Shown here: piece by piece, positions 21,171 through 59,954 of the stretch
Layout: each line of letters opens with the position of its first letter
Position numbering within the stretch: the first letter of the stretch is position 1
DNA from: Candidatus Pyrohabitans jungbluthii
GTDB lineage: Archaea; Hydrothermarchaeota; Hydrothermarchaeia; Hydrothermarchaeales; BMS3B
DNA: 64,000 nt
Direction: 5' to 3'
Assembly (NCBI GenBank): GCA_002010065.2
Contig: MTMD02000006.1
Location: 15,133-79,132 of the forward strand
Translations under genes and position numbers: made by a program
The notes under the pieces: generated by a model
Database searches by the model: none
The model's input: only the letters and a program-made list of their open reading frames with translations
What the model was told of the DNA's origin: nothing

Positions 21171-21190
21171 AGGGCCACGGCCGAGATTTG
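21171..21190. repeat. Provirus attachment site (duplicated tRNA-His 3' end)
   Basis: AGGGCCACGGCCGAGATTTG, identical to 59935-59954. Confidence 0.95.
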
Positions 21191-21333
21191 GCAGCATGTG
21201 CATCGTCAGCGTCCTTTCCAAGAGTGCAAACATTTGCGCAACAGGACACTTCACTTTTTCGCCGCTCTCGGGTTAGGTCTTTTTGTGTGGAATACTCCAT
21301 ATATCCTACCTTTGGACACTTGGGGGAATCGAG

Positions 21334-21690
21334 ATGCTTGCGAAGTTTGTTGATCGGGAAGGACATGAGCGCTGGGTGGATGTGCGCATCAAAGATTGCG
21401 TGGAAGTCAAAGAAGGGCAGCGAAAGGTAGTCTTCATCCACGAGCTGAAGTCTGCCACCGTCGAAGAAGTCGCAAACCCTGCAAAGCTGGAAGGTTGGCT
21501 CAGCATTGCCAAGCTCGAACTTGATGCCACTCTGTCGCGTGAGGGAAAGGCAAACTGGACCAGCATGGCTTACGAGCTGAAGTGGACGCTCGGGCTGAAA
21601 AGCAAAGAAGAGGCTGAGGACATTCTCAGGCAGCTCTGCGAAGTCACCGGGGAGTACATCGTGCGCGATGGCTGGATCGTCAGGGTGTGA
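21334..21690 (+). CDS. Viral hypothetical protein next to att
   Basis: ATG 21334 after GGGGG; codon usage resembles other viral genes. Confidence 0.6.
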   Translation: MLAKFVDREGHERWVDVRIKDCVEVKEGQRKVVFIHELKSATVEEVANPAKLEGWLSIAKLELDATLSREGKANWTSMAYELKWTLGLKSKEEAEDILRQLCEVTGEYIVRDGWIVRV

Positions 21691-21701
21691 GCTTATTTTT
21701 T

Positions 21702-22259
21702 CTACCTCCAACTTATTATTACTCCATCGTCTGCGCTATGACCCAACAACTCCCCGTAGCTCTTCAGCCTCGCCTCAAATGTTACCATGGCACCTTTGGG
21801 AATCTCCAGAGCCTTTTCCTTCTGGTCAGATCTAAGTTTAACACTCATATCTGACGTGAAAGTGTCTGGCTTGCATCTCAATGACATCATTAGAGACTCT
21901 GACACATCCACTAGTTCGCAGGTCCACCTGACATACTTCCCTTTATATTTCTCAAATTCTACCTTCTTCTGGGCATCCGTCAGAGAGCCTTCCATTCCAA
22001 AGAGGGAATCAAACTCATAGAAGCTTATATCTATGTACTCTTTTGGAGGAGGCGTTGCTGCAGATCCTGTTGATGTAGAGCCTTCTTCGCCGCCTCCGAA
22101 CAATGCTGCTACGAACATCAAGCCAAAGAGCACTATGAAAGCTTTCGTCACAATGTGCCTTCTCCCCCACCAGCTGCGGTTATCATGCCCGCAGTGAGGG
22201 CACTCTTTGGCTTTTGAAGATATCTCCGCTCCACATTCTTTGCATTTTACCAGCCCCAA
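21702..22259 (-). CDS. Zinc-ribbon, TM helix and extracellular OB-fold-like membrane protein
   Basis: CKECG...CPHCG, one TM helix, KYKGKYVRWTC.L..V as in tRNA_anti-like OB domains. Confidence 0.7.
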   Translation of the reverse strand: MGLVKCKECGAEISSKAKECPHCGHDNRSWWGRRHIVTKAFIVLFGLMFVAALFGGGEEGSTSTGSAATPPPKEYIDISFYEFDSLFGMEGSLTDAQKKVEFEKYKGKYVRWTCELVDVSESLMMSLRCKPDTFTSDMSVKLRSDQKEKALEIPKGAMVTFEARLKSYGELLGHSADDGVIISWR

Positions 22260-22302
22260 TTTCTCAAACCCCCTATATTCTCTAATAAATTCCTTAATTT
22301 TA

Positions 22303-22485
22303 TTACTCCCTCACCCCCTCTTTTTTGTACGTGGTTTTTAGTTCCTGTTCCTTAAGCCACTCGATTAGAGCGGTCCGGACGACATCTGCTTTAGTAGGAT
22401 ACTTCCCTTTATCAACCAACTTCTGGACTTTTTCGTATGTCTCTTCTGAAACACCAATCTTTATGAAATATGTTTTCTGCGGCAT
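22303..22485 (-). CDS. Ribbon-helix-helix regulator (candidate repressor)
   Basis: IKIGVSEE....VQKLVDKGKYPTKADVVRTAL. Confidence 0.8.
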   Translation of the reverse strand: MPQKTYFIKIGVSEETYEKVQKLVDKGKYPTKADVVRTALIEWLKEQELKTTYKKEGVRE

Positions 22486-22644
22486 TTTTTCACGCCCTTA
22501 TTAGTAACTAAAAGGTTACTTATAAAGTTAACGTCACGGTTCCCGATTTTCTAAATATTTTTGCACAGTCCCGGAATCTCAAAAGTTAGAATTTCAAAGC
22601 CGCGAAATCTGGTTCGAATTATTCCCCATATACTACACTTTTTT

Positions 22645-22725
22645 GGAACTTAGTTAGAACTTCAAACCGTAAAGTATTTATACCATTCCCGTATTAGGAA
22701 CTTATCAGGAACTTTATTAGAACTA
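22645..22725 (+). promoter_or_regulatory. Rightward early promoter flanked by 11-bp phased RGAACT operators
   Basis: RGAACT at 22645, 22656, 22697, 22708 and 22719; BRE/TATA AAAGTATTTATA at 22671-22682. Confidence 0.65.
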
Positions 22726-22739
22726 CTGGAGGAGAAAGT

Positions 22740-22961
22740 ATGGCAGAGCGTGAGATTGTGAAACTGACTCTCTCGAAGGGCTTTGCAAAAGCCGTTGACG
22801 CGCTCGTAGAAAAAGGGGACTATAAGTCCCGGCCGGACTTCTTCGAGAAGGCTGGGCATCTCCTTCTTGAGAAGCATGGCATGCTCGTACAGTCCGCTCA
22901 ACCACCGCGCCACATCAGCGACGCCACCGGCAACAGGGTGCAGAAAGTGGAGGTGGACTGA
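22740..22961 (+). CDS. Ribbon-helix-helix regulator (Cro-like position)
   Basis: VKLTLSKG....VDALVEKGDYKSRPDFF. Confidence 0.8.
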   Translation: MAEREIVKLTLSKGFAKAVDALVEKGDYKSRPDFFEKAGHLLLEKHGMLVQSAQPPRHISDATGNRVQKVEVD

Positions 22962-22964
22962 GCC

Positions 22965-23225
22965 ATGCCTGAGATTCTTGCCATCATCGATACAGGGGAA
23001 GAAATAGTTCCGGGACTCACACTGAAGCGTTGGGAGCACCTCTGCTACCTCACCAAGGACGAGATTTTCGAGCTCGGGAGGCGCGGTCTACGCGAGCTTT
23101 TCAAGAAGCTCGGCAAGCAGCATCCAGAGGCGAAGTGGCTGAAGCTGAAGATGCGCGGCATTCGAAGACACTATGGTTTGCACGAGTTCGACCCCTGGCT
23201 GAATCCATACCGGAGGGACAGGTGA
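22965..23225 (+). CDS. Viral hypothetical protein
   Basis: GGAGGTGG RBS, early operon. Confidence 0.6.
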   Translation: MPEILAIIDTGEEIVPGLTLKRWEHLCYLTKDEIFELGRRGLRELFKKLGKQHPEAKWLKLKMRGIRRHYGLHEFDPWLNPYRRDR

Positions 23226-23359
23226 TGGCGCTGGAGCAGGTTCTCAGGCTCAGACTGAGCAGGGAGCAGGTCCAGAAGCTCACCAAGGGGCACAAGATCA
23301 CCGAGATTCTGCCGAGCGGCGAGGTGCTGGAGATCACCGCGGAGGTGAGTGACAATTGA
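23225..23359 (+). CDS. Viral microprotein (44 aa, MALEQVLRL...)
   Basis: Start overlaps the upstream stop; stop overlaps the next start. Confidence 0.55.
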   Translation: MALEQVLRLRLSREQVQKLTKGHKITEILPSGEVLEITAEVSDN

Positions 23360-23676
23360 ACGAGGACGAGCTCTTCCGCAGGGTTGTGCGCGTGTTTTTG
23401 GAGAAGCATGGTGACGAGGTCAGGCGCGCGGTGAAGGGTGACTTGCTCCTCGAGGCAGGACTCAAGCGTCTCGAAGAAATCGCGGGCATCACTCACCATG
23501 GCAGCCCTAAAGTCTCTTTTTCTGGAGCTTTGCAGGCTCGGGCTGCCCATCCCCCCAAACCCCTCCCCACTACCTCCGTGGGCGCTGGAGGTACCCCCCA
23601 CGCCGACTTCGCTGTACGAGGCTTCTCGCCCTCTGGCGCCCACTCTTTTTTCTGCCAGGAGGTGAGTGAGCATTGA
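23356..23676 (+). CDS. Viral hypothetical protein
   Basis: GGAGGTGA RBS, coupled ORF. Confidence 0.55.
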   Translation: MNEDELFRRVVRVFLEKHGDEVRRAVKGDLLLEAGLKRLEEIAGITHHGSPKVSFSGALQARAAHPPKPLPTTSVGAGGTPHADFAVRGFSPSGAHSFFCQEVSEH

Positions 23677-24368
23677 ACCTCAATGCTGCTGATGCGGGTG
23701 TTGGGGCGGGCTCCATCTCCCACATCGCCTCCTCTATACCCAGCGCCCCCACCCCCTCTCTCAAATTTAAAACGTGGAAAGACACCACTTGGTATTATAC
23801 CCAGGTCCCTGACTGGCTTCTTGAGGATGCGCATAAGTACGCCCTGGAGAGGCGGGAGTTCAAGCGTTCCAGCACCGACAACGTGCCGATATTTCAGACC
23901 GATCCCGTTGAGAATGAAAAGGTAGGTATCATAGGCGAGCTCGTCTGCGGCTTCCTCTTCGCCAGGAACATCAACATCAGGCTAATCGATAGGCCTACTG
24001 ATATGATTGATGGTGGCGACGGCGGTGCAGACTTCTATCTGCAGCGCTCCGACGACGAAGACAACCTAGCTAAGATAGACGTGAAAACAGTAGCCAGGAC
24101 AGTTGTCCCAAAGCCTCACTACAGCTGCGTGGTTGCACACAAGCAGCTCATCAGAAAGAGCGGCGAAGAAATCCTGGTTTTTGTCAGCTACACCAAGCCC
24201 TCGAGGCTCGCCTTTGTTCTCGGCTGGCTTACTGTTGCAGAATTCAATGAGAAAGCACGGTACAGGAGGAAGGGCTACCGCTACAACAGCTTTGTAGCTC
24301 CAACAGCGTTCCACGAGGTCTACGTGAGGGAGCTCAGGCCAATTTCTGAACTCCTCGAGTGGAGGTGA
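23673..24368 (+). CDS. PD-(D/E)XK-like nuclease
   Basis: GIIGE...GGADF...KIDVKT motif arrangement. Confidence 0.6.
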   Translation: MNLNAADAGVGAGSISHIASSIPSAPTPSLKFKTWKDTTWYYTQVPDWLLEDAHKYALERREFKRSSTDNVPIFQTDPVENEKVGIIGELVCGFLFARNINIRLIDRPTDMIDGGDGGADFYLQRSDDEDNLAKIDVKTVARTVVPKPHYSCVVAHKQLIRKSGEEILVFVSYTKPSRLAFVLGWLTVAEFNEKARYRRKGYRYNSFVAPTAFHEVYVRELRPISELLEWR

Positions 24369-24373
24369 GAAGG

Positions 24374-24637
24374 TTGGAGGAAGAAGCAAAGTATGATCTG
24401 CAGCTGGCTTTTCTGGAGAAGTTCAATCAGGAGCTCAGAGCAGCCGCCCAAATCGTAGCAGACAGGATGCCCACGCATGGCATCCCTGAAAAAGACTTCG
24501 AATATCACACTGACTGGGCTAGGTTGAAAATCAAGCGGGCGAGGACGCTTCAGACCAGGAACAAGGAGAAAATCATCGACGACCTGCGCGATGCGATCAA
24601 TTACTGCGTCTTTGCGATTCTCTCCCTGGAGGAATGA
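24374..24637 (+). CDS. DUF1599/nucleotide-modification-associated all-alpha protein
   Basis: RLKIKR...E.IIDDLRDAINYCVF. Confidence 0.55.
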   Translation: MEEEAKYDLQLAFLEKFNQELRAAAQIVADRMPTHGIPEKDFEYHTDWARLKIKRARTLQTRNKEKIIDDLRDAINYCVFAILSLEE

Positions 24638-24640
24638 GGG

Positions 24641-25081
24641 ATGGAGGAAAAGACCCAATACGACCCATCATCCCGTAGCTTCGACGACGCCCCTTCAACT
24701 GCAGCGCTTGAGGCGGAGATAGTTCCGCAATTGCTCAGCCTGCCCAAGCAGATTCGGGAGAAAATGCTCGATATCCTGCTCATGCAAAGCAGGATCAACG
24801 AGACAGAGTTCGAACTCAAACAATGGGAAGCGGAGCAAATCCAGGACATTGCCACAGCGGTTGACGAGAATGGCAGAAAGCTCTTCAGCAACGAGAAGCT
24901 GCGGCAGGCAGAACTCGAGCGCAGGAAGGCTGAGGATCAGAGGTACAAGCAGCTCAGCGAAGCGCTGCAGGAGTATAAAGAGCAACAAGAGAAGGACAGG
25001 ATAGAGCTCGAGTACCTGCGCTATCAATTCCGTGCTTTAGAAATCTATACGCGATTTCTTGAAGCGACGAGGGGGCTGTAG
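24641..25081 (+). CDS. Coiled-coil protein (UvsY-like recombination mediator?)
   Basis: All-helical with FSNEKLRQAE; adjacent to an SSB-like gene. Confidence 0.45.
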   Translation: MEEKTQYDPSSRSFDDAPSTAALEAEIVPQLLSLPKQIREKMLDILLMQSRINETEFELKQWEAEQIQDIATAVDENGRKLFSNEKLRQAELERRKAEDQRYKQLSEALQEYKEQQEKDRIELEYLRYQFRALEIYTRFLEATRGL

Positions 25082-25198
25082 CCAGATGAAGCTGGAGAAA
25101 GACCCGTTTGCTGGAATACCAGTCACAGAAGACGAAATTTGCGAATATTTCATGAAAAAATATTATCCACTTGAAAAGAAAGCCATGGAGGGAAAGAA

Positions 25199-25642
25199 AT
25201 GAGTCTGGATGGTTGGATACAGAAGGCTGAAGAGGAAGCGGAAAAGCTCCCCGCGAGCGGCGGGGAGTTCTGGAAGCCAGGCGATGGAATGTACAAGATC
25301 TTGCTCGGAGAGCCGAAGTTCAGAGATCAGGAGTTCAACAAGAAGGACGGCACGGTGGAAAAGAGGCGCATGGCAGATTTTCCAATCCTACTCGTGGAGG
25401 ATGGGCAAGTTGCCGGAAGAGCGACATGGAGCATGAGGGTGAGCAGACATGAGAAGTCAGTATACCAGAAGGTGCTCAGAGCTGCGAAAGAAGCTGTGAA
25501 AGCGGGGGATATCACAGAAGTGGACGGTGCAAAGCTCCTCGCTTTGATTGTAGAGGTGCGAGGCGAAGGGCTGAGTAGAGAGTGGTCTGTCTCAAACGTC
25601 AGCGAGTACAAGAAGAAGCTGGAGCAAGTCGCAAGCCTCTGA
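25199..25642 (+). CDS. Putative ssDNA-binding protein
   Basis: EFWKPGDG.YKI resembles gp32-like/OB SSB N-termini. Confidence 0.45.
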   Translation: MSLDGWIQKAEEEAEKLPASGGEFWKPGDGMYKILLGEPKFRDQEFNKKDGTVEKRRMADFPILLVEDGQVAGRATWSMRVSRHEKSVYQKVLRAAKEAVKAGDITEVDGAKLLALIVEVRGEGLSREWSVSNVSEYKKKLEQVASL

Positions 25643-25646
25643 GGCG

Positions 25647-26228
25647 GTGGCAATGTGCGACTACCCGGAATATGCGGCTCATAGTCTCCCCGGGCCTCTC
25701 CAGGAAGCTCACAAGCGCAGCATGCCCTTCCTCACTAAGTATGACGAGATGTTGAAAAAACACCTAGACAACCTGCCAGAAGAGATAAAAGCCAAGGTCC
25801 TTGAACGCCTCTCCGAGCCACAACCCCGCAAAGGCATGCTCCTCGGTGGGCTGCACCTGGAGGACCTGCCGCGGGTAGTCAAAGAGATTGCTGACTTGAT
25901 GGATGCTAGCATATACGCACCACATCAGCCCGATGTGAGGAGCGTGACCGTCAAGTTTGGCTGGGAGTGGCCGGAAGGCGATGACCACCACGTTTTCCTA
26001 GAAATCGTCGATGTGGACCGCGGGGAGAGTAGGAACACCGTAACACTGAGCAGAGTATTCTGCGAAAACTGCGGTGGGGTCTTCTACATCCCGGTGCCTC
26101 CTGCATGCTTCCCGGGAAACCCTCCAGCATACTCTTGCCCATATTGTCTCGGCGAGTCGCTCCGCATCCTCGAGAGGGTAACAACGGTGGTACAGGCGGA
26201 AGTGCCAGCACCTCGTGGGCGGAGGTGA
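25647..26228 (+). CDS. Hypothetical protein with C-terminal zinc ribbon
   Basis: CENCGG...CPYCLG. Confidence 0.6.
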   Translation: MAMCDYPEYAAHSLPGPLQEAHKRSMPFLTKYDEMLKKHLDNLPEEIKAKVLERLSEPQPRKGMLLGGLHLEDLPRVVKEIADLMDASIYAPHQPDVRSVTVKFGWEWPEGDDHHVFLEIVDVDRGESRNTVTLSRVFCENCGGVFYIPVPPACFPGNPPAYSCPYCLGESLRILERVTTVVQAEVPAPRGRR

Positions 26229-26234
26229 ACCACA

Positions 26235-27215
26235 ATGCCAGAGCTGTGGTTGAAAATCGAGGAAGGTGCAGTCACTGAGGTCAAGCTAGATGGGATATCC
26301 GCAGCTCTAAAGAAGCCTGTAGAGTCCACAGAGATTCCTTTCTTTCTTGAGGCAGTAGGGTTTCTCCAACGTTGTGGTTTCGGATTCAAGGTTCCAGAGA
26401 ACTCGAAAGCTGAGGTCCAGGATCCTGGGGCTGAGGTTCCTACCACACCGAAAGAGAGACACTCTGGTGAAGACGAAAAAAAGCCAAGCGCTTTCTTCTG
26501 TATCCCTCACGACGAAAGGGAGAAAAAGATTCTCACAATTCTCGAGGGTGGAGAAAAGCTCGGTGCAAAAGAAATTGCAGAGAAGCTTGGTGGCATCAGC
26601 TCACGTGGATTGTCAAAAATACTGCGAAGCATGTATGAGAAAGGGCTCATATTGCGGGAAATAGAGGAGGAGAAGGGAAGGCCCTCGCGCTATATCTACT
26701 TCATACCAACGGAGCTCAGGGAAGAAAACCTGCGTGAAGCAATAATAGCTGTCTTCAAAGAGAGCGGACGCAATCGTCTCAAAGCAAGGCAGATCGCAAA
26801 ACGGCTTGAAAAGAGAGGCATCAGCATTTCCATCCCCAAGCTTAGAGTCGTACTGAAAGACCTCGCAGACGAGGGCATACTGGATGTAGAGAAGCAGAGC
26901 CGCCCTCGCTACTACTCCTCAACAACGCAGCAGCCGGAGAAAGTTGCCTCAGAGTCACCATGGGCTGCTCCTCCAAAGGTCGAAGAGGAGAAGGTAGAGC
27001 TTTCCAGCGAGGAGGAGACAACCCTACAGGAGATTTACGATAAAGGGCAGGTATGGGACGACGAGATCAGCAGGGAAACGAGAAAGCTCTACAGGCAGCT
27101 CGAGGACAAAGGACTACTCAGAGCTTCGGTTACCACCTGGGATGAGGGGAAGAAAAAGTTCCGCCGCGCATTCTGGACCCTCACAGAGAAAGGCATTGCG
27201 GCTCTTGGAGGGTGA
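26235..27215 (+). CDS. Tandem winged-HTH DNA-binding protein
   Basis: Three wHTH-like units: AKEIAEKLG...L..M.EKGLI, ARQIAKRL...L.DEGIL, LEDKGLL...LTEKG. Confidence 0.75.
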   Translation: MPELWLKIEEGAVTEVKLDGISAALKKPVESTEIPFFLEAVGFLQRCGFGFKVPENSKAEVQDPGAEVPTTPKERHSGEDEKKPSAFFCIPHDEREKKILTILEGGEKLGAKEIAEKLGGISSRGLSKILRSMYEKGLILREIEEEKGRPSRYIYFIPTELREENLREAIIAVFKESGRNRLKARQIAKRLEKRGISISIPKLRVVLKDLADEGILDVEKQSRPRYYSSTTQQPEKVASESPWAAPPKVEEEKVELSSEEETTLQEIYDKGQVWDDEISRETRKLYRQLEDKGLLRASVTTWDEGKKKFRRAFWTLTEKGIAALGG

Positions 27216-27218
27216 TAG

Positions 27219-27398
27219 ATGCCCGGCTGGAGAGTTTTCAGGGAGAATATCCTGTGTGCCAGAGAGCTCTTCTTCTGCCCGGAATGCGGCAGCCACGACA
27301 TCTACAAAAGAACCAGGAAGGGTGGGTACTACTGCAACCTCCACAAGGGGATCTTCGAAAAACCTCTCATATTCAGGAGGGTGGAAAACAGTGGTTAA
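27219..27398 (+). CDS. CPxCG zinc-ribbon microprotein (59 aa)
   Basis: Hand translation MPGWRVFRENILCARELFFCPECGSHDIYKRTRKGGYYCNLHKGIF..., preceded by GGAGGGTGA; below the ORF-track cutoff. Confidence 0.7.
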   Translation: MPGWRVFRENILCARELFFCPECGSHDIYKRTRKGGYYCNLHKGIFEKPLIFRRVENSG

Positions 27399-27552
27399 AC
27401 GCAGACGGCTCAGCAAGCAGGAGGAAAGGATACGCAAACTGCAGAGGCTCACCAGGCGCGACCTGGTCAAAAAGGAGCGCCCCATCTGCAACGTGTGCTT
27501 CCGCCCTGTAGGCTCATGCGATTACTGCAGGAAGGAAATGCAGAAGGCATGA
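27391..27552 (+). CDS. Basic Cys4 zinc microprotein (53 aa)
   Basis: GTG after GGAGGGTGG; CNVC...CDYC. Confidence 0.6.
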   Translation: MVKRRRLSKQEERIRKLQRLTRRDLVKKERPICNVCFRPVGSCDYCRKEMQKA

Positions 27553-30481: not shown

Positions 30482-30520
30482 AAAAGAAAAAAGGATGCTG
30501 AGAACACAGCATTGTATTGA

Positions 30521-51853: not shown

Positions 51854-51877
51854 GTCCACGCATGCTGATTTCTCATC

Positions 51878-53452: not shown

Positions 53453-54051
53453 GCGTGATAGATAGGCTTGTCAAAAGGCTCTCAAGCGCATACCGTCGAG
53501 AGCAGGGCAGCAACAACTACAAGCTGCTCTCCATCCCAGCCCAAGAGCTCGACCAGATAGAGGCAGAGCTCCAGAACATCCTCAACGCCCACCACGTGGA
53601 TTACGCCACTGGGAAGAACCTCGACAACCTGGGCAAGCTTTTCAATTGTAAACGTCTGACAGGCGAGAGCGATGCCCACTACCGCGCGAGGCTCAAGACA
53701 CAGATGCAGAGATACACCTCCAGCGCGACGATAAACAATGTTAAGCAGGTTGTGGCAACAATCCTTGGCAAGCCTACCTCCCGCGTGAAGGTCACTGAGG
53801 ATTTCAGCGGAGGAAAATATGCGCACTTCGACGTTTGGGTCTGGCTTCAAGACCTCAATGACGCTGGAATAACGGTGCAAGACCTGAAGGACTTAATCAG
53901 CGAGATAAAGGGCGTGGGAATAAGCGTCGAGACATACCAGCAGGGCACTTTCACATACCGCTCTGCTGCTGAGACATCAGACCCGGCTAAAGGTTATAAT
54001 GATTTGTTAAACTCGAACCCCGACGCGGGGACTTATGCAGGACTGTTGTGA
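53449..54051 (+). CDS. Baseplate wedge protein (gpI-like)
   Basis: ATGKNLD.LG....R..GESD..YR.RL. Confidence 0.75.
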   Translation: MSVIDRLVKRLSSAYRREQGSNNYKLLSIPAQELDQIEAELQNILNAHHVDYATGKNLDNLGKLFNCKRLTGESDAHYRARLKTQMQRYTSSATINNVKQVVATILGKPTSRVKVTEDFSGGKYAHFDVWVWLQDLNDAGITVQDLKDLISEIKGVGISVETYQQGTFTYRSAAETSDPAKGYNDLLNSNPDAGTYAGLL

Positions 54052-54060
54052 GGTGAGATA

Positions 54061-54612
54061 ATGGCTATCACACAGAAGACCAGATGGGACGACACGGGGC
54101 AAGAACCTCCTGCGGGCTCGGCAAAATACGTAGCGGGCGAGCAGCCCATAGCAGAATATGACAACTGGTTCAATTATAGCACTGCTAAAGATATTGAGAG
54201 CTTGAACAAAGAACTCTCTGGAAGAATTCTCAGCAAAGGCAACACCACTTCTGCAACAGTAACAGAAACCACGCTGACACTCAAACAAGAGGTGCTCCCG
54301 GATAACGATTTCATCTCATTTGTGCATTCAATACACGTGATAGCAAATAACCCCGCTGGTTCTGGTAGCACCCTCTATTTCATGCTAAGAGCCCTGCTGA
54401 GCGATGGAGTCACAGAGGTTGACCTGCTGGATGCAGAAGAAAGCGTAGCAGAAGGGGCAAGCTTTGATGACTGGCTGCTTGACATCATTGAAAAAGTCAA
54501 TACGAATGAGAAAATCATGGCGATAAGACTCTACGCATACTGTTCAGTGGCTCCTGCTGCGGGATACGAACCTACTGTGCAAATCGAAAAAGTAACGGGG
54601 GTGCAGAACTAA
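54061..54612 (+). CDS. Tail fibre attachment/proximal fibre protein
   Basis: W...G.EPP.......GEQP.AEYDNW; follows the baseplate genes. Confidence 0.6.
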   Translation: MAITQKTRWDDTGQEPPAGSAKYVAGEQPIAEYDNWFNYSTAKDIESLNKELSGRILSKGNTTSATVTETTLTLKQEVLPDNDFISFVHSIHVIANNPAGSGSTLYFMLRALLSDGVTEVDLLDAEESVAEGASFDDWLLDIIEKVNTNEKIMAIRLYAYCSVAPAAGYEPTVQIEKVTGVQN

Positions 54613-55389
54613 ATGTCAAGGTGGTTAAATAAATCAATCTGGGATTTGATAAAATCGAAATTAGGTGCTGAAGGCTCATTAAACGCAAAATACGACAGCG
54701 ATTTGGATGGAATCGTTGAAATGGCAGATGACGCCGATACTGTGGACGGCATGCAAGGGGATTATATCCGTGACTGGAACAACCTGCTGAACAAGCCGAG
54801 CACATTCCCGCCTGATGCCCATAGCCATACCAAGAGCGAGATAACAGACTTTGCACATACCCACGTAAAAAGCGAGATTACTGATTTTAGCCACACACAC
54901 CCGGGGAGTGATATAACTTCACAAGTTCCAGAGGCGGATATGCTTGACGGGAAGCATCTGAGCGATATTCTTGATTTGATTCCGCAAAGAGACAACAGCG
55001 GAGCAATAGTATACGAGAGTTCCCCCTCTCTGATAAACGATACGACATCACAAAACTCTACAACATCAACAACATGGGTGGATTTGTATTCAAAGACATT
55101 TACAAAGCTGGACAAACACACTTGGATTAAAATCTACTGGGAACAAGCACAAGGAAGCACGGCAAGCCCAGGCGGAAAGACGCGGGTGAAAGTGACGGAC
55201 GGCGTGACGACTCTGTACACTGCCGAATTCACACTCTCAACAACTACATGGACGGGTAGAACCGACTACCTCAGAATCAAATCATTACAGAATGGTACAA
55301 TAACTGTGACTGTCCAAGGACTCTACCAATACTCAGAAACATTCGCAAGGTATCTAAAAGTTTACCGCAACCTGACCGAAGCGGATTAA
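54613..55389 (+). CDS. Tail fibre protein with HxH repeats
   Basis: ADTVDG, NKPSTFPP, 12-aa HxH-xKSEITDF repeats, ADMLDG. Confidence 0.8.
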   Translation: MSRWLNKSIWDLIKSKLGAEGSLNAKYDSDLDGIVEMADDADTVDGMQGDYIRDWNNLLNKPSTFPPDAHSHTKSEITDFAHTHVKSEITDFSHTHPGSDITSQVPEADMLDGKHLSDILDLIPQRDNSGAIVYESSPSLINDTTSQNSTTSTTWVDLYSKTFTKLDKHTWIKIYWEQAQGSTASPGGKTRVKVTDGVTTLYTAEFTLSTTTWTGRTDYLRIKSLQNGTITVTVQGLYQYSETFARYLKVYRNLTEAD

Positions 55390-55400
55390 GGTGCTTCACC

Positions 55401-57452
55401 ATGCCCTCCTGGAACCCTGTCCCCGCAACCGGAGCGCTGGAAGGCAAAATCCTTACCACCCGCCCAGTCGATACTCTCCAGGCGGAGCTCCAGGAGACTA
55501 AGGTCATAATCAGGGGCAGGGAGCGCAGGGGCTTCAAGCTCGTGCTCAGAGACGACCAGAACAGCGAGGGAGGGCTCTTCCGCTTTCATATCTCGCTGCT
55601 CAGGAACTTCGACGTGAAGCATCCCTTCATCGCGCTGAACGGGCAGGTGCTCCCTGCAAAGCTCGTGAACGGCGAGTGGATAGAGGTTGAGATACCTCAC
55701 TTCTCCACCCAGACGCTTGAAATCTTCAGCGGGAGCTACAGCGAGCGCTGGAATGATAAGACGAACGGGGACACCGTGACGCTGAGCCTCGCTAACGTGC
55801 ATAGTCCCACCAACGTGAAAGTAAGGGCTATTGGGCGCAAAGGCGCATGGACGATTGGAGGGGAGACGTTTCAGTGCCGCATGCCAGTGACGGTTGACAA
55901 CTCGCAAAACGCCTCAGCGCTCACAGACTATCAGGTCAAGGTGGTAGTGGACACCGCAAGTTTAATAGCAGCAGGGAAGATGAACGCGGACTGCAGCGAT
56001 GTGCGGTTCACGGACAGCGACGGCGCGACGAAAATACCGTATTACCTTGAGCCGGGCACAGAGAACACGGCGAGCACGGTGTTCTGGGTGAAAGTGCCGA
56101 GCATACCGGCGTCTGGGTCAACAACGATATACATGTACTACGGCAACCCGTCCGCAGTTTCAGAAAGCGACGCGGATGCCGTCTTCGAACTTTTTGATGA
56201 TTTCGAAGGTACAGATATCGACACAACAAAATGGACAGACATTCATGCCGGCTCACAAGTAACTTACTCAGTAGCAAATTCGAAGTTGTCAGTAACCATT
56301 TTGTCAGGAACATCAGGTCTTTATTTCTCAATGAGAACAATAAAACAATTTCCAAACGACATTGTTATACATGAAAAAATAGATAGCATAAGCATTGGCG
56401 ATGCAACCGATATCAAAATTGCAATTGGAACTGGAACAGGACTGATAACGGCAGATGGAGACTACGCTACTAACTTTGGAAACGGCTATGTAGCTAGTCT
56501 ACGTTATCGCAGTACTCTTACTCCTGCCTACAGTGCGCGATTGTTAAGGTTTGATGACGACACAGATTCTTGGACAACGTTGGCTGAAGTTGAACATCAG
56601 GCACAGGCAGGTGTTTACGAGTTTAGAAGGTTTGGTGGTGATTTAGAAGCACGTAAAGACAGTAGTTTGCTTACTTCTGCAACTGATAGCACATACATAG
56701 CAAACTTTTATATGAGGCATATATCGAGAGGAAGTTCAATCGAAGGAATAAGCTACGAGATAGACTATATTTTTATCCGCAAATACGCCGACCCCGAGCC
56801 TTCTACCAGCCTCGGCGCAGAGGAAGCCGCCGCGCTCAACACCCAAGGCGCCGCCGTGTCGGTCAATGGGAGCGCAGCGATTGACCTCATGTATGTGAAC
56901 GGCTCACCAGTCACCGAATTGTTAGATGGGCAAGCCGGGGACTGGATAGACATAGACCCCGCGTTATTGAACCAGGGCGACGGCGTCACGAACACACTCA
57001 CAATCAGCACAGCGAACAACTCCCGCGTGGACATAGAAATCATGATGGACTACAAGGACGACGTGGTTATCGAAACCTTCACCTTCAGCACGCCCAACGC
57101 TGGAATAGTCGGAGAGGTAAAGGACACCGAGATAACCATCTCGGCGGATACCTCCAGCCCGCGCTTCGATTTTGCGTTTTCCAAGCAAATCGACTCTGTG
57201 CAGGCTGTGAGATACGAACTCAACGATGCAGGCATAGTTAACCTCACGACCGACCCCACAGCACGACCCTACTATGCCACATCTGGAAATATCCTCACAG
57301 TCTACCCAGACGACCCGCTCCTGGCAGGAGACAAGATCAATATCCGCGCAGGCGTGAGCTTCCAGGTGAGTGAGAAGCCACCCATCTACACTTCCGCCCT
57401 CGACGTTGAGGTGGAGAAGAAAGAGGTAATCCTCGAGGTGAGGCTCTCATGA
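55401..57452 (+). CDS. DUF2341-domain adhesin/receptor-binding protein
   Basis: LTDYQV...D.SDVRFTD.DG...WVKVP.IP....IYMYYGN, FDDF, D.IFIRKY..PEP. Confidence 0.8.
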   Translation: MPSWNPVPATGALEGKILTTRPVDTLQAELQETKVIIRGRERRGFKLVLRDDQNSEGGLFRFHISLLRNFDVKHPFIALNGQVLPAKLVNGEWIEVEIPHFSTQTLEIFSGSYSERWNDKTNGDTVTLSLANVHSPTNVKVRAIGRKGAWTIGGETFQCRMPVTVDNSQNASALTDYQVKVVVDTASLIAAGKMNADCSDVRFTDSDGATKIPYYLEPGTENTASTVFWVKVPSIPASGSTTIYMYYGNPSAVSESDADAVFELFDDFEGTDIDTTKWTDIHAGSQVTYSVANSKLSVTILSGTSGLYFSMRTIKQFPNDIVIHEKIDSISIGDATDIKIAIGTGTGLITADGDYATNFGNGYVASLRYRSTLTPAYSARLLRFDDDTDSWTTLAEVEHQAQAGVYEFRRFGGDLEARKDSSLLTSATDSTYIANFYMRHISRGSSIEGISYEIDYIFIRKYADPEPSTSLGAEEAAALNTQGAAVSVNGSAAIDLMYVNGSPVTELLDGQAGDWIDIDPALLNQGDGVTNTLTISTANNSRVDIEIMMDYKDDVVIETFTFSTPNAGIVGEVKDTEITISADTSSPRFDFAFSKQIDSVQAVRYELNDAGIVNLTTDPTARPYYATSGNILTVYPDDPLLAGDKINIRAGVSFQVSEKPPIYTSALDVEVEKKEVILEVRLS

Positions 57453-57772
57453 CGGTTATAAGGATGAAGCGGAATGATACTCTCCCGAGCCTTGAAGCGA
57501 CATTAAAATACAGCGACGGCACTGCGATAGACCTCACCGGGGCGACGGTGAAGTTCTACATGGCAAAGCCTGATGGCACAGTGGTTATCAATGCTACAGC
57601 AACAATCGTAGACGCCACAGCCGGGAAAGTGCGCTATGAGTGGCAGGCAGGCGATTTAAGCGAGGAGGGTAGGTATAACGCAGAGTTTGAGGTTACTTTC
57701 CCGAACGGGGACGTTCTAACCGCGCCCTCGCAGGGATACTTTATCATAGAGGTGCAGAGGGATTTAGCTTGA
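57449..57772 (+). CDS. BppU-like Ig-fold tail protein
   Basis: DT.P.L...L...G..IDLTGATV.F...G.V.YEW...D....G.Y.AEF.V. Confidence 0.7.
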   Translation: MTVIRMKRNDTLPSLEATLKYSDGTAIDLTGATVKFYMAKPDGTVVINATATIVDATAGKVRYEWQAGDLSEEGRYNAEFEVTFPNGDVLTAPSQGYFIIEVQRDLA

Positions 57773-58075
57773 TTTTCCCCCACAATCTTTAGATTTCTTC
57801 AATTCATCAAGCTTTCTGGCGAGTCTTTTATATTTCCTTTCTATTGGCCATAAAATCCCAAAAGCTATAAACAAAGAATATATCGTAATTATCTTAAAAT
57901 AATCAAAAAATGTATTTTCCTTAACTAATTTTGGAAAATTAACCATAAGGCCAACGAGTGCTGTAAGAATTAAACCTAAAAAGCCACTCATAGTCAACTT
58001 TTCGATTTCCATAATTGCCCTTATCTCTTCCTCGCCCATGTCTTCCTCTTTTCTCCCAAATTTCCAGAAGCGCAT
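57764..58075 (-). CDS. AT-rich two-TM membrane protein
   Basis: Two TM helices, GGAGG RBS. Confidence 0.55.
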   Translation of the reverse strand: MRFWKFGRKEEDMGEEEIRAIMEIEKLTMSGFLGLILTALVGLMVNFPKLVKENTFFDYFKIITIYSLFIAFGILWPIERKYKRLARKLDELKKSKDCGGKSS

Positions 58076-58169
58076 AATTACCCCTCCTTCATTAAGGCGC
58101 TGAGAAAATCCTTCTTTAAAAACCTTTCGCAGGGCTAAGATTTATTATGAATCGGTATAAGTAAACACT

Positions 58170-58631
58170 ATGAGATTTATCCATACCCTCATCCTAGTGG
58201 CTATTGCATTTATCGCCGGGGTTATCGTTGGCGCCCTGGGCGTGCTCTCTCTGTTTGATGTAGGTTCAAGTACTCAGGCCTCCCAAGTCGCCACCCTGGA
58301 TAATTATGAATATGTAGGCACCGTGACCAGAATAATAGACGGCGATACCATTGAAGTGGACGGCATCCGAGTAAGGCTTGTGGGCATCGATACCCCAGAA
58401 AGAGGCGAGCCTGGCTTCAAAGAAGCAACAGAGTTCACAGCCTCTTTGTGTTCTGTTGGGAGCACTGCAGGTCTTGACATCGACGATCTGGAGCCAAAAG
58501 ATAAGTATGGCAGGACTCTGGCGGTGGTCTACTGCAACGGCGTGAACGTGAATGCGGAGCTGCTGAGACAGGGCTATGCTGAGGTCCTTTATATCCCACC
58601 GTCGGAGTTTGATCCATATAGCTGGCTGTAG
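58170..58631 (+). CDS. Membrane-anchored thermonuclease (SNase family)
   Basis: N-terminal TM, IIDGDT, VRLVGIDTPE, DKYGRTLA, N.ELLRQGYA. Confidence 0.92.
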   Translation: MRFIHTLILVAIAFIAGVIVGALGVLSLFDVGSSTQASQVATLDNYEYVGTVTRIIDGDTIEVDGIRVRLVGIDTPERGEPGFKEATEFTASLCSVGSTAGLDIDDLEPKDKYGRTLAVVYCNGVNVNAELLRQGYAEVLYIPPSEFDPYSWL

Positions 58632-59831
58632 TTACTCAAGCTTCTCAAGCAGCTCAAGCAACTTCTTTTCGTCTTTCCTTCCAGAAAGCTCCATGGCGAT
58701 AAGTTCCTTTACTAATTCTTTCAGCGGGGCTTGGCTTGGCCTAAGCTTCATGCAGTTATAACAGGTGTCCATGTGCGCGGGATTCATGGCGCCGCATGCC
58801 ACGCACTGCCAGGGCTTGTTTTCTTCCTTGGCTTTTCTATCCCTCTTCAGGTTGTAGAACTCAAGGAGCCGGTCGTCAACATCGCGCCCAGAGAGGTGCA
58901 CATAGACGGCGGGCATCCTTGACCCCTGCACCCAGCCGAAGAACTCGCACATCTGCGCTTCCGTCATCACGCTTGCATAGATCGTCGCCCTGGTGTGCCT
59001 GAAGAGGTAAGGGTATATGCGCTTCTTGATCCCAGCTCTTTTCTTTACGGTCCTGAGTATCTTCTGCAGACCATCGCGCTTCAGATAGCCAAGTCCGCGG
59101 TTGTAGGGCCAGAAGGGGAATTCAGGGTCTGGCGGTAGTAGCCTTTTCCACCTGATGAGATATGGCGTCGAGAAGATTGCACGCACTCTCCTCATTCCAG
59201 TCTTCCCGCGCAGTGTAATTATCGCGGTCGGCACCTCTGTTTCATAATCTATAACCACATCCTTTACGCGAAGCCTCAGCAACTCAGAAGGACGGGGCCC
59301 TATGTCGTACATCAGGGCGATCAGTGCTCTGTCGCGGTCATTGTTGCAGGCGTTTATAAGAGCGAGCACTTCTTGCTCAGTCAGCAGGTCCGTCGGGATG
59401 ATCCTGTTGTTGAGCTTAATTGTTGTCTTGAGCCACTTTACTTCCTCGGGATATTCTTCTCCCTCCATCCCCCTGAGCCACTGATAGAATTTTTTCAGGA
59501 CGGATTTGAAGGTCGCTCTTGTCCACTCCTCCCATCCCTCCCGTCTGAGCCTGCCCATCATCACCTCGATGTCGCGCTTTGTGGCAGCCTCGAACTCCTT
59601 ACCGAGCCACTCTGAAGCCTTGGTGAGGTACTGGATGTACTTCGTGAGCCTGGCATAGCCTATCTCGTGTGCGGTCATTACATCGATGAATTCCTGAATG
59701 GTCTTGCGATTCGCTTCTATCACGCGAGGGTCCGTTTTCAGAAGTTCGCAGGCTCGCTCGAATTTCTGTTTGTCCTGGGAGACATCGAGAACTCTGGGCG
59801 CTTCGATCACTACTGCTGCAGCGTCCCCCAT
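58632..59831 (-). CDS. int: Tyrosine integrase with C-terminal zinc ribbon (SNJ2-like)
   Basis: GPRPSE (R), GKTG (K), YLFRH, FFGW, AVY (Y), CVACG...CYNC; abuts the att site. Confidence 0.92.
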   Translation of the reverse strand: MGDAAAVVIEAPRVLDVSQDKQKFERACELLKTDPRVIEANRKTIQEFIDVMTAHEIGYARLTKYIQYLTKASEWLGKEFEAATKRDIEVMMGRLRREGWEEWTRATFKSVLKKFYQWLRGMEGEEYPEEVKWLKTTIKLNNRIIPTDLLTEQEVLALINACNNDRDRALIALMYDIGPRPSELLRLRVKDVVIDYETEVPTAIITLRGKTGMRRVRAIFSTPYLIRWKRLLPPDPEFPFWPYNRGLGYLKRDGLQKILRTVKKRAGIKKRIYPYLFRHTRATIYASVMTEAQMCEFFGWVQGSRMPAVYVHLSGRDVDDRLLEFYNLKRDRKAKEENKPWQCVACGAMNPAHMDTCYNCMKLRPSQAPLKELVKELIAMELSGRKDEKKLLELLEKLE

Positions 59832-59934
59832 GCCCCTCAAGTATTACCACCCCACTTTAAGCTGATACCGCGAGTGCACGGTAAAAGTGAATTCTTCCAA
59901 AAATGCTTGTAAAGAAGTAATGGAAGTGGGCTAT

Positions 59935-59954
59935 AGGGCCACGGCCGAGATTTG
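59935..59954. repeat. Provirus attachment site within tRNA-His
   Basis: Identical to 21171-21190. Confidence 0.95.

Follow-up and report, generated by a model that had tools for sequence, protein, structure and literature searches.

What kind of element occupies the 38.8 kb between two copies of a tRNA-His 3' end in this archaeal contig, is it whole, and does it belong to any virus group already described? From the letters of the window (the whole 64,000-nt stretch of DNA that was analysed), the original prediction had been a complete, myovirus-like archaeal provirus of a possibly undescribed group. We find it probable, at roughly three chances in four, that the element is a genetically intact temperate Caudoviricetes virus of the contractile-tail morphotype, integrated in an archaeal chromosome.

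Integration site and host

The following features define the borders of the element.

21122..21131, minus strand: oligo-T run from the original tRNA-His downstream region, now 38.8 kb away from the tRNA
21171..21190, unstranded: attL core, 20 nt duplicating the tRNA-His end (19 nt and one further base)
58632..59840, minus strand: intact tyrosine integrase with a C-terminal zinc ribbon (Pfam Phage_integrase, E 3.6e-13)
59935..59954, unstranded: attR core, the 3' end of the intact tRNA-His
59936..60010, minus strand: intact tRNA-His (GTG; ARAGORN; Rfam tRNA, 62.7 bits)

The two cores are still identical and form an exact 20-nt direct repeat, AGGGCCACGGCCGAGATTTG, which spans the final 19 nt of tRNA-His plus one base; by an arithmetic estimate, about 0.001 exact 20-mer pairs would be expected by chance in 43 kb. 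The borders of the provirus are also set independently: of four genomes of the same genus, three lack the 38.8 kb inter-repeat segment at this locus. In two of these (G001 and G004) the left flank directly abuts the tRNA-His side, with the junction at the repeat, and in the third (G003) 78 nt separate the flanks. A 93%-identical contig from an independent hydrothermal-vent run likewise reads across the core, linking the left flank to the tRNA. The oligo-T run beyond the left repeat can be aligned with the same run 3' of the uninterrupted tRNA in G001, as expected for the displaced terminator that had been proposed. The remaining predictions for this site, namely a tRNA-His target, an exact 20-bp att repeat and an integrase adjoining the intact tRNA (its ORF lies 95 nt from the right repeat), were also borne out.

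The integrase gene is not split by integration, and its translation shows the catalytic R..K..HxxR..W..Y residues. The enzyme would recombine the host tRNA (attB) with attP, the copy of the tRNA end that the virus brings in; the tRNA would thereby stay whole, and the old oligo-T run would be left at the far end.

The host is apparently an uncultured deep-sea archaeon of the Hydrothermarchaeota, a phylum of 38 species. Its archaeal nature, also part of the original prediction, agrees with the archaellum genes FlaI/ArlH that flank the provirus and with the archaeal SSU rRNA in the genome. The genome is a 2 Mb assembly in 15 contigs, and viral DNA could in principle have been wrongly joined to an archaeal contig during assembly or binning. 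We consider such a chimera hardly conceivable: host genes stand on both sides of the provirus within one contig, the left junction is spanned by contigs from three runs (although these runs may be the source of this sequence), and in relatives the flanks meet precisely at the repeat, a pattern that a chimera would not give.

Morphogenetic genes and their completeness

Head, neck, contractile-tail and baseplate genes are collinear and all on the plus strand (33212-57772). They are listed here with a candidate promoter element and an island that lies among them; G041 denotes the closest relative found, the 39,127-nt IMG/VR contig IMGVR_UViG_3300027323_000064, which is classed as a provirus.

33170..33186, plus strand: candidate late-promoter element CTGACTTNNNTTTWTAW, 17 nt, first of seven copies (motif search)
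33212..33643, plus strand: putative small terminase subunit, by position (overlaps the TerL start; 37% identical to the same-position G041 homologue)
33618..34952, plus strand: large terminase subunit, TerL (Pfam Terminase_6N, E 1.5e-14; Terminase_6C, E 1.1e-8; phrog_2, E 3.2e-47)
35000..36391, plus strand: Mu-type portal protein (Pfam Portal_Mu, E 2.1e-11)
36392..37666, plus strand: Mu F-like minor head protein (Pfam Phage_Mu_F, E 8.5e-16)
38405..39763, plus strand: probable prohead protease fused to a coiled-coil scaffold
39765..40235, plus strand: capsid cement or decoration protein (Pfam Phage_cement, E 1.3e-5, just under the cut-off)
40237..41124, plus strand: HK97-type major capsid protein, MCP (phrog_1650, E 1.2e-27; Pfam Phage_capsid_4, E 8.8e-7)
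41172..43606, plus strand: neck genes, including four small proteins conserved in relatives
42156-42521 and 42518-43027, plus strand: head closure and Neck1/tail completion (phrog_161, E 5.6e-5; phrog_222, E 5e-22)
43678..44757, plus strand: tail sheath (phrog_205, E 6.4e-37; Pfam DUF3383, E 3.4e-11)
44759..45172, plus strand: tail tube, assigned by fold
45183-45494, plus strand: tail assembly chaperone (Pfam Phage_TAC_5, E 6.1e-5)
45674..48056, minus strand: foreign island of 2.4 kb and low GC (26-38%)
48096..49844, plus strand: tape measure protein (phrog_1272, E 1.9e-8; residues 1-334 50% identical to G041)
49907..54612, plus strand: baseplate block with Dit-like, plug-like, hub (50713-51525) and one unknown protein, and the next three
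51878-52243, plus strand: gp25-like sheath initiator (Pfam Sheath_initiator, E 3.4e-8)
52244-53452, plus strand: baseplate J (Pfam Baseplate_J, E 8.4e-33)
53449-54051, plus strand: Mu gp48/P2 I-like baseplate protein
54613..57772, plus strand: fibre/receptor-binding genes (a fibre-like protein of 258 aa, a 683-aa DUF2341 protein and a BppU_N protein)

Further matches were obtained in the baseplate block (Pfam Dit_like, E 6e-17; phrog_196, E 3.5e-41; phrog_1160, E 6.6e-37) and the fibre block (phrog_5413, phrog_8443; Pfam DUF2341, E 1.2e-33; BppU_N, E 3.2e-13). The small terminase candidate matched no family with a function in Pfam or PHROG. For the protease-scaffold protein, of which the AF2 model is poor, residues 160-405 are 44% identical to the homologue L017, which matches Peptidase_S78 (E 4.5e-8) in a stretch overlapping this alignment, and residues 247-318 are 42% identical to the "head maturation protease" of Thermus phage Riverbug. 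Heads would assemble around the Mu-type portal with this protease-scaffold fusion. The tube gene product was modelled with AF2 (pLDDT 80.8), and the best Foldseek matches are myovirus tubes (Bas63 9mt4_O, E 6.5e-6; Pam3 8hdw_1, TM 0.64). With the sheath, the gp25-like initiator and baseplate J also present, the myovirus-like description stands.

The tail chaperone would exist in two forms through a predicted -1 frameshift at A_AAA_AAG (45485-45491), which extends the product to 45673. In G041 an A7 run is also present, and the -1 frame extension is homologous and conserved as protein. This conserved frameshift is new here, as are the island and the late-promoter element.

The seven copies of the CTGACTTNNNTTTWTAW element (the others start at 34949, 38364, 43024, 43611, 49864 and 51836) all lie on the plus strand, which is the coding strand; none occurred in 100 shuffles, and there is no copy in the rest of the 2 Mb genome. 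Relatives G041 and G042 carry 8 and 3 copies, on the coding strand and at homologous places (before the portal, protease, sheath and Dit genes). The spacing to the start codon is 25-27 nt in four of the seven copies, and near-leaderless mRNAs are therefore implied. We infer a promoter role for the element: the late genes would be transcribed as about seven units, each from one such virus-specific copy.

Was the provirus, as first predicted, free of obvious disruptions? No gene is itself interrupted, but the set is split between the chaperone and tape measure genes by the minus-strand island. The island, unique in the host genome, consists of four ORFs of 180, 251, 207 (coiled coil) and 75 aa (membrane), for which Pfam, PHROG and PADLOC gave no family; a single homologue of the 251-aa protein was found among 5.8e9 proteins. 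It stands between the sheath-tube-chaperone unit and the tape measure gene, before which the motif search found no late element. Tail assembly could therefore be impaired, and the element might be a cryptic provirus, recently integrated and whole in appearance, that can no longer complete its cycle because of the island or of the loss of an unrecognisable function (an excision factor or lysis). A close relative in genome G009 is clearly defective, with a truncated portal gene, no Neck1-to-chaperone genes and no TerL found in a 98% complete genome; decay therefore occurs in this lineage. No excised or circular form was seen in assembled contigs, where the three runs with the full sequence, which may be its source, show the integrated junction only. 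Nor was an excised-form junction or the exact attL 41-mer found among JGI metagenome contigs.

Against this stands the state of the genes themselves. Every recognisable gene is full length, and homologues in G041, G042 and L001 align across nearly the full length of each morphogenetic protein, which upholds the claim of completeness. The att repeats have not diverged, a TATA-like stretch lies 15-30 nt ahead of the tape measure start, and the end of the frameshift extension is intact where it adjoins the island. A cryptic state thus seems unlikely to us, and we retain the reading of an intact temperate virus.

Lysogeny, early and replication genes

The left arm and the integrase-proximal region hold the following features.

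21702..22259, minus strand: leftward 185-aa protein with an N-terminal zinc ribbon, lysogeny-side operon (Pfam Zn_Ribbon_1, E 2.7e-6; phrog_14275, E 5.3e-11)
22303..22485, minus strand: 60-aa ribbon-helix-helix (RHH, CopG-type) regulator, candidate repressor (Pfam RHH_1, E 1.2e-4, above the cut-off)
22486..22739, unstranded: divergent control region, in which five RGAACTW repeats (22645-22725) surround a TATA-like box
22740..22961, plus strand: 73-aa RHH-like protein that opens the early operon, candidate Cro-like regulator (Pfam RHH_8, weak at E 0.012; coding-potential call)
22965..27552, plus strand: early genes, mostly of unknown function (ORF calls)
26235-27215, plus strand: 326-aa protein with repeated winged-helix domains (Pfam wHTH families, E 7e-7 to 4e-3)
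27780..28036, unstranded: candidate replication origin, two clusters with a total of five exact GGGTAWTACCC elements and about 170 nt of A/T-rich DNA between them
28453..28659, plus strand: 68-aa winged helix-turn-helix protein (Pfam HTH_24, E 1.9e-9)
28783..30318, plus strand: superfamily-2 DNA helicase, XPB/Rad25-like C-terminal part (Pfam ERCC3_RAD25_C, E 1.2e-11; ResIII, E 1.8e-10; phrog_16, E 7.8e-30)
30335..32791, plus strand: small HTH protein (30335-30481; Pfam HTH_28, E 4.2e-7) and further ORFs in a lower-GC stretch
58170..58631, plus strand: Staphylococcal-nuclease-like accessory protein beside the integrase (Pfam SNase, E 3.3e-14; phrog_452, E 8.4e-19)

The control region and its pair of RHH proteins may act as the lysogeny switch. 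The small RHH repressor, transcribed leftwards from the control region, would hold lysogeny, and the RGAACTW repeats would overlap the rightward early promoter. This motif has 23 plus-strand copies in the window, five of which cluster in the control region over a span of 75 nt. All five GGGTAWTACCC matches in the window lie within 27780..28036, and none occurred in 100 shuffles, which is consistent with an origin. After the switch, the early genes would fire this putative origin, aided by the winged-helix proteins and the SF2 helicase, and replication would use host polymerases; Pfam and PHROG family searches recognised no polymerase, primase, excisionase or lysis gene in the provirus.

The provirus is the sole copy in its genome and carries accessory genes (the nuclease and the island), as might a domesticated particle-producing element, a gene transfer agent or tailocin-like structure kept by the host. 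This is very improbable. Three of the same-genus genomes have an empty site here, and none of the four yielded an MCP; the element is therefore not a conserved host trait. It has retained its integrase, att sites, regulatory switch and replication module, and its size fits its own capsid gene set.

Relationship to known viruses

No nucleotide match was obtained among 50,697 deposited phage and virus genomes. Against deposited viruses, TerL is at most 31.5% identical, the MCP reaches 24% at E 1e-3 and nothing matches the portal; just 37 representative relatives of the MCP reach E<=1e-3 among 1.84e9. At a strict cut (E<=1e-5 and >=30% identity), HRTV-24 shares 1 of the 53 proteins, Sam112 2, Hardycor1 0 and Riverbug 1. 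With at most 2/53 proteins in common with the nearest classified viruses, the provirus therefore fits no existing genus or family, and these comparisons suggest a small, unnamed group of about family rank without a classified member. The proposal of an undescribed group thus holds against deposited genomes, but public metagenome collections already contain about ten relatives, all uncultivated. Hydrothermarchaeota proviruses are also mentioned, in the part available, by a survey of proviruses in archaea from 2026 (PMC13573593).

These relatives include G041 and about six further IMG/VR contigs. G041 has 24/52 proteins in common with the provirus, at 30-77% identity and with unchanged order over the terS-to-baseplate stretch, as well as the late element and the chaperone extension; portal residues 1-458 share 61% identity with IMG/VR relatives. 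However, the early, replication and lysogeny genes of G041, which is uncultivated, are not shared with the provirus, save one small ORF, and no similar integrase was found in it.

Among classified viruses, the 34 kb temperate myovirus Riverbug of Thermus thermophilus is similar in size, with a TerL 31% identical and a shared layout: terminase, portal, Mu F-like protein and a long protease gene directly before a ~290-aa capsid gene, then neck, sheath, tape measure, baseplate, fibres and the integrase at the end. It differs in its bacterial host, in its LexA-like rather than RHH regulators and in that just 3/53 proteins are detectable at E<=1e-3. The Hafunaviridae (haloarchaeal myoviruses such as HRTV-24 and HJTV-2) are archaeal and contractile-tailed, with a baseplate J 41-42% identical and an annotated chaperone frameshift (-2 in HRTV-24), but their larger genomes (75-77 kb) encode a family-B polymerase, ribonucleotide reductase and tRNAs of their own, only 2/53 proteins match, and there is no nucleotide similarity. 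The provirus, called compact for a myovirus in the original prediction, is so beside these archaeal isolates, which have the nearest baseplate J, but not beside Riverbug. Bacterial P2 and Mu also have genomes of similar size.

Halorubrum phage Hardycor1 (Graaviviridae) has the same head order (TerL, portal, Mu F-like, ~490-aa protein, ~145-aa protein, MCP), yet TerL, 28.6% identical, is alone detectable (1/53). The portal, F protein and gp48 baseplate protein match families of bacteriophage Mu, and the tube model matches the Mu tube; no transposase was found, however, and the provirus integrates through a tyrosine recombinase, its target being a tRNA and its core 20 nt long. The bacterial viruses PBSX, Bacillus phage Sam112, cyanophage Pam3 and Pseudomonas phage E217 represent the simple contractile tail type. 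The sheath aligns over its C-terminal 45% only, at 28% identity, and 5/53 proteins are detectable in Sam112, but the gene order is alike: sheath, tube, XkdN-like chaperone, tape measure, Dit/LysM-position protein, hub, gp25-like protein, J, I-like protein and fibre. The cement and plug proteins of the provirus also match the Pfam families of those of Pam3 and E217.

Integration site and borders

The element appears to be an intact, temperate provirus of the myovirus type, delimited to the base in an uncultured archaeal phylum and belonging to a rare unclassified lineage. In its essentials, the original prediction was right. The following features lie at the integration site.

21171-21190 and 59935-59954: exact pair of the 20-nt repeat AGGGCCACGGCCGAGATTTG, the att core (attL left, attR right)
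58632-59840, minus strand: tyrosine recombinase (integrase), 402 codons, Pfam Phage_integrase (E 3.6e-13)
59936-60010, minus strand: tRNA-His(GTG), the single tRNA of the window by ARAGORN, with Rfam in agreement

The core pair was recovered by a repeat finder (pair D15) and its sequence read directly. The right copy consists of the final 19 nt of the tRNA-His plus one base; by our own arithmetic, about 0.001 exact 20-mer pairs would be expected by chance in 43 kb. An Rfam scan of the window returned nothing beyond the tRNA-His. The integrase ORF lies 95 nt from the right core copy, and its translation shows the R..K..HxxR..W..Y residues and a zinc ribbon at the C-terminus. Both the exact att repeat at the end of the tRNA-His and the integrase adjoining an intact tRNA, as first claimed, are borne out by these data. 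The oligo-T run that had been called displaced is found at 21122-21131.

We searched the left host flank across 41 related genomes and compared the resulting loci with the window. In two genomes of the same genus (G001 and G004), homology of the left flank runs to window position 21190, after which the DNA is directly homologous to 59934 onwards, and the two flank alignments overlap on the repeat. ARAGORN places a tRNA-His at the same spot in both, as the alignment shows base by base. A third same-genus genome (G003) has 78 nt between the two flanks; in the fourth (G002), the 970 nt past the left flank contained no match to the right flank of the window. A 93%-identical contig of run X4, which comes independently from a hydrothermal vent, covers the left flank and the core and then reads on for ten letters that continue the tRNA. 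The empty sites in relatives and in this contig establish that the insertion is real. Its core-to-core length is 38,764 nt, and close relatives do not share the insertion. Contigs of the runs that hold the sequence show the integrated form (contigs only), and the runs listed as holding it include no RNA. The exact 41-nt stretch across attL was absent from JGI metagenome contigs.

The mode of integration differs from two other schemes. In SSV-type archaeal integrases, attP lies within the integrase gene, which is partitioned on integration, whereas the gene here is whole. Mu-like transposable phages use a DDE transposase and insert at random with short target duplications, whereas this insertion is site-specific at a tRNA, and no DDE transposase family was found among the 52 and 14 ORFs scanned.

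In G004, 9-10 nt outside the core and downstream of the tRNA (positions 3150-3170 of its locus L007, against window 59915-59934) are more like the right end of the provirus than like the left flank of the window itself. Either the att arm carried by the virus may have come from a host resembling G004, or an earlier integration may have left a scar in G004. A 204-aa ORF on the minus strand (21097-21711) crosses the att core and is doubtful.

Morphogenetic genes and intactness

The gene map was built from Pfam and PHROG scans of 52 ORFs, 14 small ORFs and a coding-potential pass.

33212-57772, plus strand for all genes: morphogenetic module, tightly packed, in the order given in the next five lines
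Packaging and head: putative terS (by position), TerL, Mu-type portal, Mu F-like gene, two small ORFs
Then: conserved 452-aa protein, cement protein, MCP, six neck genes including head closure and Neck1
Tail: sheath, 137-aa protein, XkdN-like chaperone, tape measure
Baseplate: Dit-like, plug-like, hub, gp25-like sheath initiator, baseplate J, Mu gp48/P2 I-like
End: fibre genes, including a 683-aa DUF2341 protein

The large terminase has both ATPase and nuclease domains (Terminase_6N E 1.5e-14, Terminase_6C E 1.1e-8, phrog_2 E 3.2e-47), the portal matches Portal_Mu (E 2.1e-11), and family matches of the MCP (phrog_1650 E 1.2e-27, Phage_capsid_4 E 8.8e-7) predict an HK97 fold. The large terminase, the portal and an MCP of predicted HK97 type together place the provirus in the Caudoviricetes (tailed dsDNA viruses).

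Tail genes include a sheath (phrog_205 E 6.4e-37, DUF3383 E 3.4e-11), a gp25-like initiator (Sheath_initiator E 3.4e-8, GPW_gp25 E 1.5e-6) and a J wedge (Baseplate_J E 8.4e-33). The 137-aa protein was modelled with AF2 (pLDDT 80.8, from 3 sequences), and the model has 25 PDB matches at E<=0.001; those listed all come from phages or contractile injection systems and are tube or Hcp-like proteins. The best are myovirus tubes (Bas63, E 6.5e-6; the Pam3 tube, TM 0.64), followed by PhiTE, phage 812, Sf14, P1, Mu, monocin, diffocin, PVC and AFP. On the basis of this model, the protein has the predicted Hcp/gp19 fold of a tail tube. Sheath, tube, gp25-like initiator and J wedge together predict the contractile-tail (myovirus) morphotype.

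The 452-aa protein has no family match of its own, and a profile search against PDB sequences returned only coiled-coil noise; its AF2 model is poor (pLDDT 47, 8 sequences). Its homologue in G036, a genome of the host phylum (44% identical over residues 160-405), matches Peptidase_S78 (E 4.5e-8) in an overlapping stretch. Residues 247-318 are 42% identical to a gene annotated as ‘head maturation protease’ in the Thermus phage Riverbug, and the position of the gene matches that of the Riverbug protease gene. These three lines of evidence suggest that the gene encodes a prohead protease joined to a coiled-coil scaffold. Its motifs may resemble those of HK97-type proteases.

A full gene set without obvious disruptions had been claimed, and we found no stop or frameshift in any recognised gene. 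Homologues in IMG/VR records and in a sister-genus genome of the same family (G009) align over nearly the full length of TerL, portal, protease-scaffold, MCP, neck, sheath, hub, gp25 and baseplate J, and residues 1-334 of the tape measure are conserved, start included.

Putative regulatory elements, frameshift and low-GC island

The early region carries the following features.

Left end, leftward pair: 60-aa ribbon-helix-helix (RHH) protein (RHH_1 E 1.2e-4) and 185-aa zinc-ribbon protein
First gene of the rightward early operon: 73-aa RHH-like protein, weak (E 0.012)
Right of the putative switch region: 326-aa protein of winged-helix repeats
Two clusters either side of about 170 nt of A/T-rich DNA: five exact copies of GGGTAWTACCC
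Right of these repeats: 68-aa winged-helix protein, SF2 helicase (phrog_16 E 7.8e-30) and 48-aa HTH protein

In the 254-nt divergent region, five RGAACTW repeats occur within 75 nt around a TATA-like box; across 64 kb, that strand has 23 copies of the motif. We infer that this divergent RHH region could be the lysogeny switch. All five matches of GGGTAWTACCC in the window fall in its cluster region, and 100 shuffles gave none; with its neighbours, the cluster looks like a putative origin with initiator and helicase. Neither a polymerase nor a primase was recognised among the provirus genes. A minus-strand ORF at 22662-23039 is probably spurious, since better-scoring plus-strand genes overlap it.

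Run X4 also has contigs that match parts of the early region (22304-25473) at 90-95% identity, with some stretches skipped and rearranged; the early module has mosaic relatives in circulation elsewhere. A 111-aa ORF of the middle region (31908-32243) has homologues, 54-62% identical over residues 30-77, in the IMG/VR record IMGVR_UViG_3300027323_000064 (G041), in a further relative (G042) and at loci L099 and L101. Such homologues lie between head-closure and Neck1 genes in the relatives, and this small gene therefore shifts between modules.

We set aside a scan for bacterial promoters and terminators, which is not meaningful for an archaeon. The 17-nt word CTGACTTNNNTTTWTAW occurs in seven copies, always on the plus strand, ahead of terS, portal, protease, the ORF at 43055, sheath, the Dit-like gene and gp25; it was absent from 100 shuffles and from the rest of the 2 Mb genome. 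For four of the seven copies, the end of the TATA-like 3′ part lies 25-27 nt ahead of the start codon, a spacing that in archaeal promoters goes with near-leaderless mRNAs and implies such mRNAs here. G041 and G042 carry the element as well, in eight and three copies that are all on the coding strand and stand ahead of the counterparts of the portal, protease, sheath and Dit genes; protein identity there is only 30-77%. Its retention at homologous places despite this divergence is good evidence of function, and we regard it as a candidate late-promoter element. This element, like the chaperone frameshift and the foreign island described below, went unseen in the original prediction.

At the end of the chaperone gene, A_AAA_AAG at 45485-45491 is followed by a -1 frame that stays open to 45673 and adds 61 residues. 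In G041, an A7 run stands at the same place and the -1 extension is similar as protein. The predicted -1 shift is that of a classical tail chaperone frameshift; for the corresponding gene, the record of the haloarchaeal virus HRTV-24 gives a -2 shift. In the provirus, an island sits exactly between the end of the extension and the start of the tape measure gene.

45674-48056, four ORFs on the minus strand: low-GC island of 2.4 kb, GC 26-38% vs about 50-55% around
Minus strand, within the island: ORFs of 180, 251, 207 (coiled coil) and 75 aa (membrane)

The island is a recent foreign insertion. The block occurs once in its own genome, and its proteins matched no family in Pfam, PHROG or PADLOC, with Atlas feature scores (0.76-0.85) under the meaningful level. 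The 251-aa protein has a single homologue, at 79% identity, among 5.8 billion proteins. Since the tape measure gene has no late element ahead of it, the island is also the single feature that could impair expression of the tail genes. The 18-nt sequence ATTCTCTAATAAATTCCT occurs twice without a mismatch (repeat finder pair D17), once at 22277-22294, where a spacer separates the RHH gene from the zinc-ribbon gene, and once at 46859-46876 inside the 251-aa island ORF; by our arithmetic, the chance expectation for such a pair is about 0.01.

Relatives, rank and host

We compared the provirus with 50,697 deposited phage and virus genomes. Its 25 kb structural region had no megablast match among these records, and the head-to-tube part had no blastn match. 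TerL reaches at most 31.5% identity, to Thermus phages and an acidobacterial phage (28.6% to the Halorubrum phage Hardycor1), the MCP matches one phage only (24%, E 1e-3), and the portal matches none of the deposited genomes. For the sheath, an alignment at 27-28% identity covers 45% of the protein, and baseplate J is 41-42% identical to those of haloarchaeal Hafunaviridae (75-77 kb) and of the Bacillus phage Sam112.

Table. Matches of 53 provirus proteins in four deposited genomes (E<=1e-3; strict cut, E<=1e-5 and >=30% identity)
HRTV-24, Hafunaviridae: 2/53, strict 1/53 (first 50 kb of 77.5 kb compared)
Sam112, family unassigned in record: 5/53, strict 2/53
Hardycor1, Graaviviridae: 1/53, strict 0/53
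Riverbug, family unassigned in record: 3/53, strict 1/53

For archaeal tailed viruses, the family criterion is a shared protein fraction above roughly 10-20%, according to a 2026 survey of archaeal proviruses (PMC13573593). The fractions found here are far below it, and there is no nucleotide similarity, the measure at genus level; the provirus therefore belongs to no classified genus or family among the 50,697 records. The suggestion of an undescribed viral group holds with respect to classified viruses (0-2 of 53 proteins shared at the strict cut with the four nearest records), but uncultivated relatives exist in IMG/VR.

For TerL and MCP, identity is 24-31% to all deposited viruses, compared with 51-77% to the uncultivated relatives. 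Three IMG/VR contigs carry TerL at 52% and four carry MCP at 74-77%; G041, a record of 39,127 nt assigned to the proviruses, has 24 of 52 proteins in common, with their order kept. Contigs of metagenome-assembled genomes titled Archaeoglobales and Methanosarcinales encode an MCP at 75-76%, and their binning is uncertain because they are short. At E<=1e-10, the MCP recovered 31 clusters among 5.8 billion proteins, none named as virus, and at E<=1e-3 it recovered 37 representative relatives among 1.84 billion proteins. For one relative (P0069; 51% identical, contig of 95 kb), the source gives the name ‘encapsulin [Bacteroides sp.]’, probably a wrong label for a prophage capsid gene; a bacterial record within a small capsid lineage would deserve attention.

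Within the host phylum, for which 38 species genomes were compared, the MCP is present in three (its own, G009 at 93% and G036 at 26%) and TerL in four (its own, G036 at 51% and two weak matches), while integrases of the provirus kind are found in 16. The head genes of G009 (locus L001, 5740-18776) are 90-98% identical to those of the provirus, but its portal begins at residue 187, no TerL was found in this 98% complete genome, and the stretch from Neck1 to the chaperone, including the sheath-tube segment, is missing. Of the frameshift extension, a remnant of 43 nt (93% identical) is left directly after its head-closure gene, followed by an unrelated low-GC minus-strand ORF and then a different neck and tail gene set. 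The relative in G009 is either defective (decayed) or recombinant, and its retention of such similar heads with other tail genes shows module exchange in the lineage. A 28-nt junction word common to the provirus and L001 was absent from IMG/VR. The 180-aa island ORF, considered as kin of the ORF at the matching place in L001, proved unrelated to it.

In the parts of the literature available to us, a full-text search for Hydrothermarchaeota with provirus or virus yielded no paper describing a virus of the phylum beyond one sentence in PMC13573593. That survey reports Hydrothermarchaeota with lysogenic proviruses only and proposes 16 new families from complete proviruses. A 2024 study (PMC11705971) describes 38 head-tailed proviruses with one clade that includes an Archaeoglobi host, and a 2025 ICTV summary (PMC12451623) gives the viruses of Archaeoglobi as pleomorphic only. 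A genomics paper (PMC6946796) mentions viruses in general terms only.

As a kind of thing, the provirus is ordinary; its value lies in a certain host link and in a testable promoter word, origin and frameshift. A bolder and tentative reading, to which we give about three chances in ten, is that the provirus remains a live virus, the best-delimited one in a new tailed lineage of approximately family rank, infecting archaea of the hot, anoxic marine subsurface (relatives binned with Archaeoglobales, Methanosarcinales and Hydrothermarchaeota). In that lineage, late genes would be under the control of its own 17-nt word, in which CTGACTT replaces the usual factor-B recognition element and is read with a virus-encoded DNA-binding protein. 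If true, this would be a compact, testable case of virus-specific promoter recognition in Archaea. The provirus offers a reference genome for a rare capsid lineage with a certain host, its att site and integrase could serve genetic tools, and three sequence-level hypotheses (late-promoter word, origin repeats and chaperone frameshift) lend themselves to in vitro tests that need no host.

The Hydrothermarchaeota, which live in ocean crust and vent sediments, are archaea without cultured members. The host genome (1.99 Mb, 15 contigs, 99.95% complete) has an archaeal SSU rRNA, the flanks of the provirus encode the archaellum proteins FlaI and ArlH, an archaeal NMN adenylyltransferase and further housekeeping genes, and the runs holding the sequence are labelled as subsurface, marine and hydrothermal vent metagenomes. 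CRISPR spacers had been proposed as a check on the provirus. The sole array found in its own genome (contig C15, 93978-94271, outside the window) has five 30-nt repeats with 36-nt spacers, and none of the five spacers matches the provirus beyond 12 nt. A 23-nt fragment resembling a CRISPR repeat was seen at C1:45308-45330.

No further copies of provirus genes were found in the host genome, except for a 48% paralogue of a 130-aa ORF. This ORF (37955-38347) lies between the Mu F-like and protease genes, its partial counterpart is at C2:381327-381533, and it is the only provirus protein with a counterpart on the host chromosome. In the host flank, a methyltransferase ORF (18755-19408) is without counterpart in G001 and G004, where the alignment breaks off near 18755 and resumes near 19406; this 650-nt host indel (18756-19405) is unrelated to the provirus.
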